Below are positions 17,114 through 20,835 of a DNA stretch of 64,000 nucleotides, piece after piece; within the stretch, counting starts at the first letter, position 1, and each line of letters opens with the position of its first letter. The stretch is from a virus: positions 23,616 through 87,615 of the IMG/VR virus record IMGVR_UViG_3300024262_000020; one strand, given 5' to 3'. Position numbers and translations under genes: made by a program. Under the pieces are notes generated by a model. That model worked only from the letters and a program-made list of their open reading frames with translations, did no database searches and was not told the DNA's origin.

Positions 17114-17185
17114 TGACGAGTACGGGATTCGAACCCGTATCTTCGGTTTTAGAGACCGACATTCTGACCATTGAACTAACAAGCC
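17114..17185 (-). tRNA. Amber suppressor tRNA, anticodon CUA (Trp-like body)
   Basis: Anticodon arm TCGGT-CTCTAAA-ACCGA; T arm ACGGG-TTCGAAT-CCCGT; acceptor GGCTTGT/ACTCGTC with two mismatches; A73. Confidence 0.8.
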
Positions 17186-17197
17186 ATTAGTCCTGTT

Positions 17198-17560
17198 TTA
17201 ACAGGACTTTTCTAATTCCTTTAATTTTGCTAATCGTGAAGCATCAACTACGATAACTTCATCAGTTTCTTTAATATATTTCAATCGATAAATCCACTCA
17301 CCTGGTTTGGTTTTTAAAATTGTATATTTTTCCATTTCTAAAATTTGGTCATAACCAACTTTAACCCCATCATATTCAGATTTATTTTCCGAATATTTGT
17401 TGATAACCGTTAGATAGTTTCCTATCAAATGACCTTCTTCAGGTAGAAGTGTTTTTAATGTGTGTGATTTTGCATTTTCTAAATCTTTACTTAAAGACCA
17501 GAATGTATCACATTTAAAATATACTTTATTATCTTTTAATACTTTACAAACTATGTCCAT
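17198..17560 (-). CDS. Hypothetical protein with RLAKLKEL tag
   Basis: 120 aa ORF behind a TATATTTG promoter. Confidence 0.65.
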   Translation of the reverse strand: MDIVCKVLKDNKVYFKCDTFWSLSKDLENAKSHTLKTLLPEEGHLIGNYLTVINKYSENKSEYDGVKVGYDQILEMEKYTILKTKPGEWIYRLKYIKETDEVIVVDASRLAKLKELEKSC

Positions 17561-17583
17561 ATTTTCAGTTTTTATTTATGTTG

Positions 17584-17591
17584 CAAATATA
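17584..17591 (-). promoter_or_regulatory. Bacteroidota-type -7 element TAnnTTTG (also - 22224, 23073, 28538, 30125, 32663, 62721; + 56264)
   Basis: Matches the established Bacteroidota sigma-A -7 consensus, each just upstream of a gene or RNA start. Confidence 0.7.
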
Positions 17592-17606
17592 CAATAATTT
17601 TTTAAA

Positions 17607-17718
17607 ATAAAAAGGGTGTGATAGAAATTTTTCAATTAATTGAGATTAACCTTTGCAACGAGGTATTTCTATCTGATACTTTATAGTATTATCTCATAAA
17701 CATTTTACACCCTTTTAT
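17607..17718. ncRNA. Candidate multi-stem RNA element
   Basis: AAAAGGGTGT/ACACCCTTTT closing stem, GATAGAAAT/ATTTCTATC stem, TGAGAT/ATCTCA cross-pairing. Confidence 0.35.
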
Positions 17719-17765
17719 AGTGTCCAGAGACTATAAACACTATTTATAGTCTCTGGACACTATAA
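17715..17765. repeat. Perfect 23-bp inverted repeat with 5-nt loop
   Basis: ttatagtgtccagagactataaa-cacta-tttatagtctctggacactataa. Confidence 0.9.
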
Positions 17766-17768
17766 CTA

Positions 17769-18230
17769 TTAAAAAGTGAAAAGTTCTTGTCTTTTCTGTC
17801 TTTCTTTGTAGTAATCACCTTTTTCAGTTTTATATTCCAAAAGTGCGTTTTCTGCTTCATCACGAAGTTTTAACCATTCTTTTCTTTTCTTTTGAATTTC
17901 TTCTTCTTTCAAAGATTTTCTGATTTGAACTTTTTCAATTGGTTCAAAAGTTTTATATAAAAGGTGTAAAAGTGAATTGACATTTCTTAATGTCATTTTC
18001 TTATTGACACCATTTAAATATTTATTAACTTTCTTTAATTGATTTTTTGAAAGATTGTGAGTTGAAATTGGCATATTTTTATATATGTTGATATCACCAA
18101 CAATTCTATAATCCATTATTCTCACCCAAGTTTCAATTTTTTCAAGTGTTTTGTTAATTTTTGCTTTTAATTCTGTTTCTGTATATACATATACATTTTC
18201 TGTGTTTTCTGTTCTTTCTAAAGTTTTCAT
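17769..18230 (-). CDS. Hypothetical protein
   Basis: 153 aa ORF. Confidence 0.7.
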   Translation of the reverse strand: MKTLERTENTENVYVYTETELKAKINKTLEKIETWVRIMDYRIVGDINIYKNMPISTHNLSKNQLKKVNKYLNGVNKKMTLRNVNSLLHLLYKTFEPIEKVQIRKSLKEEEIQKKRKEWLKLRDEAENALLEYKTEKGDYYKERQKRQELFTF

Positions 18231-18248
18231 GTTTTTTCTCCTTATTTT

Positions 18249-18515
18249 TTAAATGTTTTTTATTAAATCTAATTTTTCTTTTCTTAATTTTCTGACAACA
18301 TCTTCTACTGGTATTGATGCGTAATATTGATCAGAGTCACCACATCGATTATATGAGTAATATCTTAAATCAAATTCATCACCATCAAAGTCAACATCAG
18401 GATAATATCCACTTAGATCATCTCCGTATTTGTCACCATTTGTCATTTCTGCTAAGAAATCGATGAACCATTCATCTTCATTATCTACCCATTCATTCAT
18501 TTTATCTACTAACAT
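18249..18515 (-). CDS. Acidic hypothetical protein with RKEKLDLI tag
   Basis: 88 aa ORF. Confidence 0.65.
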   Translation of the reverse strand: MLVDKMNEWVDNEDEWFIDFLAEMTNGDKYGDDLSGYYPDVDFDGDEFDLRYYSYNRCGDSDQYYASIPVEDVVRKLRKEKLDLIKNI

Positions 18516-18571
18516 AATTTTTAATTTTTTTGTTTTATTTAAATAATTTTAATTCTCTGGCTAGATAATTT

Positions 18572-18616
18572 TTAAGGAGGTCTAACTGCCACCTATGTTT
18601 CTTCTAAATTTTTCAT
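18572..18616 (-). other. Mini-ORF MKNLEET-(TAG)-VAVRPP-TAA, candidate amber-readthrough leader
   Basis: ATG AAA AAT TTA GAA GAA ACA TAG GTG GCA GTT AGA CCT CCT TAA after an A-rich leader. Confidence 0.45.
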
Positions 18617-18653
18617 AAGTCTTTTTTATTTTTTGTTAATACTAATTAAATTG

Positions 18654-18821
18654 TGATCGTAGTAGGACTCGAACCTACACTCCATTCAACTATCTATTGA
18701 TATATTTTTTAAATCACTTGCAACTAATTTAAAATTTAATCAACTTGTCATCAAAAGGGAGAAATGCTCGTCAGCTTTCCCAAAGCAGTTATAAAACTGT
18801 GACACCTATCACTTTACGACC
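18654..18821 (-). ncRNA. tRNA-like RNA (acceptor stem + T arm enclosing ~135 nt)
   Basis: GGTCGTA/TACGATC-A acceptor; GTAGG-TTCGAGT-CCTAC T arm; no canonical D or anticodon arm found. Confidence 0.6.
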
Positions 18822-18826
18822 TTTTG

Positions 18827-19019
18827 TCAACCTGGTAGGGAATTGAACCCCCGACTCGATTCCTTTTTAGGCAATGCTTTAAATACTAAGCGACTTTATT
18901 TAACTCATACTTTTAAGAACCAATATCTAACACCGAAACATTTTAATTAATACTTAGGATTACTCCTACAAGCCGCTCAACTTGTATATTAATTTTTTTA
19001 ACTGTTCTGTTACAGGCTG
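18827..19019 (-). ncRNA. tRNA-like RNA with G3:U70 acceptor (tmRNA-like)
   Basis: CAGCCTG/CAGGTTG-A acceptor; GGGGG-TTCAATT-CCCTAC T arm; ~160 nt insert with hairpins. Confidence 0.5.
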
Positions 19020-19028
19020 TTATATTTT

Positions 19029-19445
19029 TTATCTTTCAAAGATTCCAATTACTTTATTTTTTGAGTAATCAATATCTTTTCGTTCTTTTTCTTGTTTGTT
19101 ATAATAACTTGGTAAAGAACTAAACCAATTTTTCTTTATTTTAAATCTTTCGTTTACTAATCCTTTATCAAATTCTGTATTTGTTCCCACATTTGTTGCG
19201 AATATACTATGCCAGTATAATTCATATGTTAATTGCCAAGGTTCAATTTCTTTAATTTCATATATTCTTGGTGTCCATATATCTTCTCCATCTTCATCAT
19301 ATTCTTCACCTTCTTCTACAAAAATGCCACCTTCTTCTATCATATTATAGTAGTACATTTTATTTTCATATTCACATATTCCACATATTGGACCATCCCA
19401 ATAATTGTTGTAGAATAATATTTTTACATTTTCTAATTTTTTCAT
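19029..19445 (-). CDS. Hypothetical protein
   Basis: 138 aa ORF, YWDGPICG motif. Confidence 0.7.
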   Translation of the reverse strand: MKKLENVKILFYNNYWDGPICGICEYENKMYYYNMIEEGGIFVEEGEEYDEDGEDIWTPRIYEIKEIEPWQLTYELYWHSIFATNVGTNTEFDKGLVNERFKIKKNWFSSLPSYYNKQEKERKDIDYSKNKVIGIFER

Positions 19446-19678
19446 AATTCTATTTCCATTATTTTTTCTTTTCTAATATTTTTTGTTGGGAAGTCATTGA
19501 TATAAACAAATCTTACAAATTGATCATCAACATGTTCACAACCTTTAATTAGTTTTGTTTCAACCATCATACAAGGGTATTCTTTTGGATTTATTTCACT
19601 TTCACTTTGAACATATATACCTTTTTTATGATGTTTATAGTTTTCCCAGTCTTTTGAACTTTTTAATAATTTTTTCAT
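19442..19678 (-). CDS. Hypothetical protein with RKEKIMEI tag
   Basis: ATGA-coupled ORF. Confidence 0.65.
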   Translation of the reverse strand: MKKLLKSSKDWENYKHHKKGIYVQSESEINPKEYPCMMVETKLIKGCEHVDDQFVRFVYINDFPTKNIRKEKIMEIEL

Positions 19679-19989
19679 TTGTCAATTTCATTTAATTTTG
19701 TTTTACGAACTAATTTTAATGCTTCTTTTAATTCTTTTTCCTCAGCACTTTTAATCCATTTTTCAACTAATTCATTTCTATATTTGATTGCTTTATCAAC
19801 ATATTCAGATAAATGTTCTTCACAAACAATATCTTGTAAATTTGATAATTGTGAGCCACCAACGAAAATCATATACTTATCATGATTAGTACAATCTTTC
19901 TTTGCACAAGTAGAGGTTCTTGACCAAGAGCCGTGTTGAATATGAACTCTGTTATTTTCGTAATATTTTCTTTTTGTTTCTTCAGTCAT
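19675..19989 (-). CDS. Hypothetical Cys/His protein with RKTKLNEI tag
   Basis: CAKKDC...CEEH possible zinc site. Confidence 0.65.
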   Translation of the reverse strand: MTEETKRKYYENNRVHIQHGSWSRTSTCAKKDCTNHDKYMIFVGGSQLSNLQDIVCEEHLSEYVDKAIKYRNELVEKWIKSAEEKELKEALKLVRKTKLNEIDK

Positions 19990-19991
19990 TT

Positions 19992-20456
19992 TTATATCCT
20001 TTCTAATTTTTCTAATTTTTCTTTTCTTAGATCTTTTAATTCTAAAATATCTGTGAGTAAGAAGTCGTAATATACATCATCATGTCCACTACATCCCCAG
20101 GCTTCGTGTACCCATACTCTAAGATATTCATATTTCTTTTGTTGATATCTGAAATATCTTTCTTTGAATTCAGGATCATATTCATATTCAACTTTCCAAT
20201 TATCAGCATTTATTCTAAAGTTTTTAATGTCATATTCATATTCATCTTCTGATATTTCGATCCATTCATATTCAATTGGTATATTTTTCATATCTTCATC
20301 ATAACATACTTCCACATCAGAAATTCTCCATATATGTCTATCGTATTTGTTTGAGATAGTATCTTCAAATAATGAAATTATTTCTTTCTTATTCTTAGAG
20401 TATAATTGTTTACTCTTAGTAAATTCTGTGAGAAGTTTTCTTGGAATTTTAGGCAT
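19992..20456 (-). CDS. Hypothetical protein with RKEKLEKL tag
   Basis: 154 aa ORF. Confidence 0.65.
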   Translation of the reverse strand: MPKIPRKLLTEFTKSKQLYSKNKKEIISLFEDTISNKYDRHIWRISDVEVCYDEDMKNIPIEYEWIEISEDEYEYDIKNFRINADNWKVEYEYDPEFKERYFRYQQKKYEYLRVWVHEAWGCSGHDDVYYDFLLTDILELKDLRKEKLEKLERI

Positions 20457-20835
20457 AACTCACCTCCTTTCTCTTGGTATTTTTATCTATACCATAGAAA
20501 CTAAATTCTTTTAAAGCTAAAGGTAATGATGAAGTTAATCTTCTTGTTGCATCTGAAGGTTCTAATGCGATTGCAGTAATTGCATTATCAATATCAGGCT
20601 CACGAAAAATGGACACTTTGATGCCTTTTTCTTTTGCTTTTTTAATAAGTTGTTTTAATGAATTTTCGTCCTGGGTTGATAGGACTGCGAGATATGGATT
20701 TTTCATCCATTCTTTAAAAATTTCAGGGTGCTCAACTGAAAATTGATTTGATGCGTGAATAGCCTGAGCAATTTGATATCCTGGGGTGATATCTTTTCTT
20801 GTTACAATTGTTAATTTTTGTACCTAGTGTGTCAT
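20449..20835 (-). CDS. Peptidyl-tRNA hydrolase type 2 (PTH2)-like protein with in-frame TAG at codon 4
   Basis: MTH*VQKLTIVTRKDITPGYQIAQAIHA...W...FREPD...TAIALEP...TSSLPL; the conserved N-terminus lies upstream of the track's 20706 start. Confidence 0.75.

Follow-up and report, generated by a model that had tools for sequence, protein, structure and literature searches.

A conserved phage module pairs a Pth2-like gene carrying an early in-frame TAG with a nearby tRNA(CUA): a candidate for suppressor-tRNA-dependent expression of a single gene

Phages that have reassigned the amber codon, including the Lak and crAss-like phages, encode their own tRNA(CUA), grow in hosts in which the standard code applies and are depleted of TAG as a stop codon, and in these phages, which use genetic code 15, TAG is read as glutamine (10.1101/2021.08.26.457843; PMC9523058). 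In-frame TAGs in recoded phages have been proposed to delay the translation of particular genes or to make it conditional. Here we describe a 64,000-nt stretch of viral DNA (hereafter the window; IMG/VR record IMGVR_UViG_3300024262_000020, positions 23,616 to 87,615) that likewise combines a phage tRNA(CUA), a standard-code host and scarcity of TAG stops, and in which a gene for a protein of the Pth2 family of peptidyl-tRNA hydrolases has TAG as its fourth codon. Unlike the recoded phages, the window holds a single small TAG-bearing gene, with the TAG at a fixed site after the start, and reads elsewhere in plain code 11. The term peptidyl-tRNA hydrolase does not occur in the preprint of Borges et al. 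(10.1101/2021.08.26.457843). The gene that would be gated here specifies a translation-recycling enzyme, whereas in recoded phages it is a lysis or structural gene. Comparison of related loci supports the view that the gene and the tRNA form a deeply conserved module for suppressor-tRNA-dependent expression of one phage gene.

A second parallel is prfB, the gene for release factor 2, which is autoregulated through an early in-frame UGA and a +1 frameshift and whose product reads that very stop. As in prfB, an early in-frame stop lies in a gene for a termination or recycling factor, and the fate of the ribosome at that codon would set the level of the protein. Unlike prfB, the frame is unchanged here, escape would require a separate tRNA, and the tie between the Pth2-like protein and UAG is one of gene linkage alone. 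The bar minigenes of phage lambda provide a third parallel; these are free-standing and are toxic in hosts defective in pth. The window gene resembles them in opening with a reading frame of the 2-4 codon type that ends in a stop, a classical source of Pth substrate, but the mini-frame is here joined in frame to a Pth-like gene. One study likewise names minigenes as a source of peptidyl-tRNA (PMC4929431). The proposed logic is also that of synthetic feed-forward gates engineered in Escherichia coli, which express an amber-bearing target only with the suppressor tRNA and achieve tight, low-leak control (PMC7969014); unlike these, the phage module would be their counterpart in nature, kept across phage lineages. 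Finally, the protein family of the window gene was described in jumbo phages by Iyer et al. in 2021 and proposed to help in ribosome rescue (PMC7824862), a survey in which 'suppressor' and 'stop codon' have no occurrences. Full-text literature searches for a module of TAG-bearing Pth2 and tRNA(CUA) found no paper describing one, and within the literature searched it is apparently undescribed.

The Pth2-like gene lies at 20449..20835 on the minus strand and comprises 128 codons. Its 5' end reads ATG ACA CAC TAG GTA CAA AAA TTA ACA ATT GTA ACA AGA AAA GAT, with the in-frame TAG (20824..20826, minus strand) as codon 4 and G at +4. The initial annotation had reported this gene and its TAG and had found no restart ahead of the conserved region, and both statements hold: no ATG, GTG or TTG occurs between the TAG and the ATG at 20706, which is codon 44, and the match to the family profile starts at residue 7. 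Starting at codon 44 would delete the first strand and helix, half of the fold, and with them the invariant residues T12, R13, D15, P18, G19, Y20, Q21, Q24 and H27. If the TAG is decoded, the product is 128 aa long and scores 35.3 bits (E=1.4e-8) against Pfam PTH2 (PF01981), whose cut-off is 23; residues 7-101 align with profile positions 2-109 of 115. It also matches phrog_1866 at E=4e-16.

Structure prediction points to the same family. An AlphaFold2 model built on an alignment of 58 homologues has a predicted local distance difference test score (pLDDT) of 89.2 and a predicted template modelling (TM) score of 0.80. The top 13 Foldseek matches to it are all Pth2/Bit1 structures (TM 0.54-0.75, probability 1.0), the best being archaeal Pth2 (2zv3) and human Bit1 (1q7s) at TM 0.65-0.75, and the profile of the 58 homologues matches the Pth2 chains 2zv3, 1q7s, 1rzw and 1wn2 of the Protein Data Bank (PDB). 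The protein thus passes the curated sequence threshold for PTH2 and is predicted to have the four-stranded alpha/beta Pth2 fold, but it lacks the canonical loop motifs: in the profile alignment PGYQ, with a two-residue deletion, replaces the G-K-G-K that follows strand 1, and EPD replaces the D-x-G-x-T that precedes the last strand, while the Q..HA helix motif is retained. Both PGYQ and EPD are invariant within the phage family. The 17 invariant columns among the 58 homologue sequences indicate that the domain is under purifying selection.

We assembled 88 homologous loci (individual loci are cited below by L numbers). Besides the window they comprise 87 that a tblastn search and two pattern scans detected in uncultured huge phages, in IMG/VR contigs and in phage isolates. 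A start codon, zero to three sense codons and then TAG precede the domain at 56 of the 88, in DNA of 23-48% G+C. Conservation of the early TAG, for which the initial annotation had proposed to search homologues, is therefore far beyond chance and reaches from related to very distant phages. The domain behind the TAG begins (I/V)..KL..TRxD(I/L)xPGYQ, mostly with no canonical start in between. The layout is present in all four contigs that carry the gene in metagenome-assembled genomes of GTDB, and among cultured phages in the Mycobacterium phages Alice and Myrna and the Tenacibaculum phage pT24. Homologues that lack the early TAG begin MATIKxGDKL and mostly exceed 50% G+C, and some of them use TAG as their true stop.

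In 46 of 46 distinct TAG-bearing genes the TAG is kept, never giving way to TAA, TGA, CAA or CAG, while the codon ahead of it takes 20 forms and the invariant residues T12, R13, P18 and G19 are each written with 4-5 synonymous codons. Since the TAG has stayed fixed while neighbouring codons and synonymous sites were scrambled, this comparison indicates that the triplet itself is under selection. The TAG state spans the depth of a maximum-likelihood tree of 66 proteins and can be explained on it by only about three changes. A purine directly follows the TAG in 45 of the 46 genes. In the classical work in E. coli, a purine after UAG is the context that favours amber suppression. Three homologues (L001, L032 and L074) have further in-frame TAGs inside the conserved domain, where decoding would be required to make the whole protein.

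The tRNA(CUA) of the window (17113..17185, minus strand, in ARAGORN; 17114-17185 in Rfam, RF00005, 63.8 bits) is its best-scoring tRNA by Rfam, and the two programs agree on the anticodon that had been read there. The cloverleaf covers the full Rfam model and has the features of a suppressor tRNA, with a 7-nt anticodon loop, CUCUAAA, that contains U33 and a purine at position 37. The discriminator base is A73, and CCA is not encoded. In the Rfam alignment five of the seven acceptor-stem pairs form, U4.C69 and U5.U68 being mismatched. These are the two mismatches that the initial annotation had counted as a possible defect; they are present, but they do not point to decay, because pyrimidine mismatches recur at the same 4:69 and 5:68 positions in five related tRNAs (L023, L025_2, L032, L041 and L047) beside neighbouring pairs that covary. 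The pattern indicates a conserved trait of one tRNA lineage. Among 53 distinct tRNA(CUA)s, the 7-bp acceptor stem is perfect, and varied in sequence, in 46, and the loop CUCUAAA is shared by 40; this combination of diverse perfect stems with a common loop argues that the tRNAs are maintained.

Other identities for the tRNA were considered and set aside. A recent duplication of the window's tRNA-Trp or of another local tRNA was rejected at an identity of at most 73%; by blastn, tRNA-Trp genes of Erwinia phages share 88% identity with the tRNA(CUA) over 50 nt. The label 'Pyl' that ARAGORN gives it is the program's convention for every CUA anticodon. The tRNA for pyrrolysine has a 3-nt variable loop and a small D loop that lacks GG. 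The window tRNA has a 5-nt variable loop and GG in its D loop, and on these features, with no search for PylS, it was not taken for a pyrrolysine tRNA.

The gene and the tRNA are linked in related phages as they are in the window, where the tRNA(CUA) closes the leftward gene block to which the Pth2-like gene also belongs, 3.3 kb downstream of that gene. ARAGORN finds a same-strand tRNA(CUA) within 5 kb at 51 of the 56 TAG loci and at 3 of the 32 loci that lack the TAG (Fisher p=7e-15, not corrected for phylogeny), and Rfam recovers a tRNA(CUA) that ARAGORN missed at a 52nd TAG locus. The tRNA typically lies 0.4-4 kb downstream of the TAG-bearing gene. Co-occurrence of the early TAG with tRNA(CUA), which had been suggested as a check, is thus borne out.

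What would such a pairing accomplish? The explanation that we favour, with a probability of about 0.6, is that the Pth2-like protein is made under the control of a gate, namely read-through of UAG by the phage tRNA. Translation would begin at the ATG at 20835 and reach UAG as its fourth codon. With host release factor 1 (RF1) alone, a tripeptide would be released and no enzyme would be made; where the phage tRNA(CUA) is produced, aminoacylated and able to compete, an amino acid would be inserted at UAG and the complete 128-aa protein would follow. The output of Pth2-like protein would thereby be coupled to suppressor activity, the protein probably being made only while tRNA(CUA) overrides the stop. 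The N-termini are collinear, M-x-x-TAG-(I/V)-K aligning with the M-A-T-I-K of standard-code homologues, and because the Ile or Val after the TAG aligns with I4 of MATIKxGDKL, the protein would begin upstream of the TAG. A plausible rationale is the clearing of peptidyl-tRNA. Read-through of host and phage UAG stops would raise the numbers of stalled ribosomes and dropped-off peptidyl-tRNAs, and a Pth2-like enzyme made under suppression would clear this load. The tmRNA found beside the tRNAs in some relatives fits the rescue theme. We infer that the tRNA is made and aminoacylated, that ribosomes read through UAG, that the enzyme is active and that the arrangement serves as a switch responsive to the suppressor or to RF1. 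The comparative evidence indicates a conserved phage module and not genome-wide recoding.

Several observations weigh against this explanation. The genes of Alice and Myrna read ATG/GTG TAG GTG, with a Shine-Dalgarno sequence 7 nt before the post-TAG GTG, which is the annotated start, and yet both phages have a suppressor tRNA 130-250 nt downstream. Translation there may begin past the TAG, which would make the first codons a minimal leader, or both routes may operate. The window gene has ATT, a rare start in principle, at codon 10. In relatives that bear the module TAG ends about 9% of crude open reading frames (ORFs), and strong suppression would therefore come at a cost. The window tRNA has its two acceptor-stem mismatches, albeit conserved ones, and a hairpin at 17704-17776 separates the gene from the tRNA, which makes their co-transcription uncertain. 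Lastly, since GKGK and DxGxT are replaced in a protein whose predicted fold is that of Pth2, its hydrolase activity is putative, and enzyme function is the weakest step of the explanation.

A more elaborate form of the read-through gate, speculative and in our judgement rather unlikely, is that the cassette is a self-referential sensor and effector of stop-codon read-through, a homeostat in the manner of prfB. The UAG at codons 2-5 would measure the competition between host RF1 and phage tRNA(CUA) at a place where peptides are very short, so that termination would be slow and drop-off frequent. The enzyme would feed back by clearing peptidyl-tRNA that arises from read-through or by acting on tRNA(CUA) or peptidyl-tRNA(CUA) itself, and the 4:69 and 5:68 mismatches of the tRNA and the altered active-site loops of the protein could be a matched recognition pair.

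An alternative mechanism, which we regard as unlikely, is that the codons before the TAG form a leader mini-ORF ending in UAG and that the Pth2-like protein arises by initiation or re-initiation just after it, with no need for tRNA(CUA). The starts would be GTG in the mycobacteriophages, ATT, GTT or ATA elsewhere, and the ATT at codon 10 in the window. Alice and Myrna, with their well-spaced and annotated GTG directly after the TAG, speak for it. The codon after the TAG is ATT, ATA, ATC or GTN in 38 of the 46 distinct genes, and some of these are rare starts in translation table 11; the yield of peptidyl-tRNA from minigenes (PMC4929431) would supply a thematic link to a Pth gene. In the other 8 of the 46, the post-TAG codon (AAA, AAC, ACA, AGC or CTG) is an implausible start, and in the window it is GTA. 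Any stop would serve a leader ORF, yet TAG is used in 46 of 46 genes in genomes dominated by TAA, and the tight linkage to tRNA(CUA) would go unexplained. Moreover, the post-TAG Ile or Val aligns with an internal Ile of the standard-code homologues, and the internal TAGs of three homologues would demand decoding in any case.

It is also possible, though very unlikely, that the phage uses ordinary code 15, as the Lak and crAss-like phages do, that the Pth2-like gene is by accident the sole bearer of an in-frame TAG on this fragment, and that heavily recoded genes lie on a missing part of the genome. The window is part of a single 87,615-bp contig of 27% G+C, sampled from a subsurface metagenome. 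This contig lacks terminal repeats and is probably a genome fragment, and its terminase resembles those of uncultured phages of 460-735 kb, huge phages being the nearest relatives. The locus shares with code-15 phages a suppressor tRNA of its own and the rarity of TAG stops, a depletion that Borges et al. report among phages related to recoded ones (10.1101/2021.08.26.457843), and one homologue (L001) has a TAG within the domain. TAG terminates 2 of 118-125 crude ORFs over the whole contig, and 2 of 125 compares with about 16% predicted from its trinucleotide share (p=9e-8).

The signs that would accompany reassignment, namely many in-frame TAGs in essential or late genes and a low coding density under code 11, are absent from this contig. 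Its coding density under code 11 is 93%, and the terminase, tail fibre, baseplate, DNA polymerase and primase genes are whole in that code, the first three of these being late or structural genes of the sort that is typically recoded. No other gene on the whole contig requires decoding of an in-frame TAG. The initial annotation had described long genes intact in code 11, and its view that recoding is not genome-wide stands. It had also listed a single TAG-terminated gene, which proves to be the only credible one in the window, a membrane-like protein of 82 aa at 21752-22000 (minus strand) whose next in-frame stop is a TAA 12 codons beyond; the second TAG-terminated ORF lies outside the window at contig positions 4193-4516. 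A third candidate, at 26769-26990, runs across tRNA genes and is unlikely to be real. Around the terminase, two huge relatives are also plain code 11, with genes that end in TAG, as do about 9% of ORFs around the module in relatives. A neutral sense codon, furthermore, would not persist in 46 of 46 genes at one site while synonymous sites saturate. At least within the DNA analysed, this is not genome-wide reassignment.

Sequencing or assembly error, or a decaying pseudogene beside a decaying tRNA copy, might be suspected from the two acceptor-stem mismatches and from the unremarkable minimum-free-energy fold of the tRNA alone (z=-0.5), but this explanation is effectively refuted by the comparative data: the same TAG stands in 56 loci from independent samples, isolate genomes included, the contigs of what is probably the source run (depth about 370) match the window with no alternative letter at 20824-20826 (contigs from other samples end short of the TAG), and the 17 invariant columns and the recurrence of the mismatches beside covarying pairs speak against decay.

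The DNA between the gene and the tRNA holds further conserved elements. A 153-aa protein encoded at 17769..18230 (minus strand) is syntenic: in at least ten loci (L001, L002, L003, L023, L024, L025, L028, L042, L095 and L096) tblastn detects a homologue that either separates the Pth2-like gene from the tRNA(CUA) or adjoins them. Its AlphaFold2 model is helical (pLDDT 83.5), with no fold match in the PDB by Foldseek and no usable match in the ESM Atlas. Four small ORFs, 19992-20456, 19675-19989, 19442-19678 and 19029-19445 (minus strand), span 19029..20456, and three of them are kept in the modules of the nearest relatives (L001, L023, L024, L025, L028 and L095; tblastn). Pfam and PHROGs gave nothing for nine ORFs around the module, the 153-aa protein and the four small ORFs included. 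A 120-aa ORF (17198..17560, minus strand), with a weak homologue in L025, ends 12 nt before the tRNA(CUA), and its stop sits within a short hairpin at 17189-17208. Upstream of the Pth2-like gene there is no TAG-bearing leader ORF; the gene there, at 20913-21143, is a plain ORF.

Less can be said of the noncoding segments. The hairpin between gene and tRNA is a near-perfect inverted repeat with about 30 bp per arm, just past the 153-aa gene and with no T-run following it on either strand; it may be where processing or binding takes place, and not a plain terminator. A 513-nt stretch free of ORFs, 18516-19028, holds two T-arm-like motifs, GGTTCGAGTCC and GGGTTCAATTCCC. At a permissive threshold Rfam found nothing credible in this gap or around the hairpin, and an intron-containing tRNA called in the gap by ARAGORN, at relaxed threshold only, is dubious. 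The source run contains a variant with a TT insertion at 18618/18619 at about half depth. A promoter scan returned 33 sites against 36 expected in shuffled sequence, and since such sites are no commoner than by shuffling, we claim no operon boundaries. Elsewhere in the window, a tRNA array at 25030-28011 includes two members detected by Rfam alone, and two tRNA-Lys calls (UUU and CUU; 26556-26640 and 26793-26875, minus strand) are, unusually for tRNA-Lys, 83-85 nt long with a long variable arm.

The related loci show variations on the module. Nine of them (L042, L043, L044, L048, L050, L060, L063, L068 and L075) have directly downstream a second gene, of about 84 aa, with TAG as codon 3 and the family sequence MK-TAG-INKKCEIVFHFNKKHL..PGVGFSTKETP.., so some relatives would gate two genes; this family is absent from the window's contig. 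At L028/L029, L047, L064/L069/L079 and L101 the Pth2-like gene is split right after PGYQ by an ORF with HNH-endonuclease motifs (YYENHHI..), which looks like a homing-endonuclease or intron insertion, and in L064, L069 and L079 a second, intact TAG-bearing copy lies behind the interrupted gene. The Prevotella phages Lak-A1 (L106) and Lak-B1 (L107) have a divergent Pth2-like gene with no early TAG and, about 0.7 kb upstream on the same strand, a tRNA(UUA), an arrangement that extends the link between this family and suppressors to another anticodon. In pT24 (L105) the Pth2-like gene is fused to a long C-terminal extension, and the annotated coding sequence (CDS) at 5091 starts 30 codons downstream of ATG-AAA-TAG. 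Gene 86 of Myrna (L103; 5463-5534) is annotated as tRNA-Ser, while ARAGORN reads its anticodon as CUA.

A BLAST search with the window tRNA(CUA) against five huge-phage records gave mainly T-arm matches. By pattern scan, LR756504 has an odd tRNA whose loop contains CUA, and neither LR745206 nor LR756502 gave a clear suppressor tRNA. In LR756504.1 (L130; about 281 kb) a tmRNA (Rfam, 65 bits) adjoins a tRNA-Met and an odd tRNA to which ARAGORN assigns a four-base 'tcta' anticodon, about 100 kb from the TAG-bearing Pth2-like gene of that phage.

Phage suppressor tRNAs have been discussed as tools for switching the code of whole genomes, and the module described here would represent a different use of them. 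Its layout extends from the groundwater relatives of huge phages to the widely cultured cluster C mycobacteriophages, and the question of read-through can be addressed directly in phage-host pairs grown in the laboratory. The layout also bears on annotation, as gene callers truncate or mis-start the Pth2-like gene, with the CDS of pT24 and the tRNA label of Myrna as examples. If the proposed gate is real, phages would possess a natural translational gate operated by a tRNA, and the combination of a suppressor with one dependent gene in a genome where TAG is scarce may represent a first step toward reassignment of the code.

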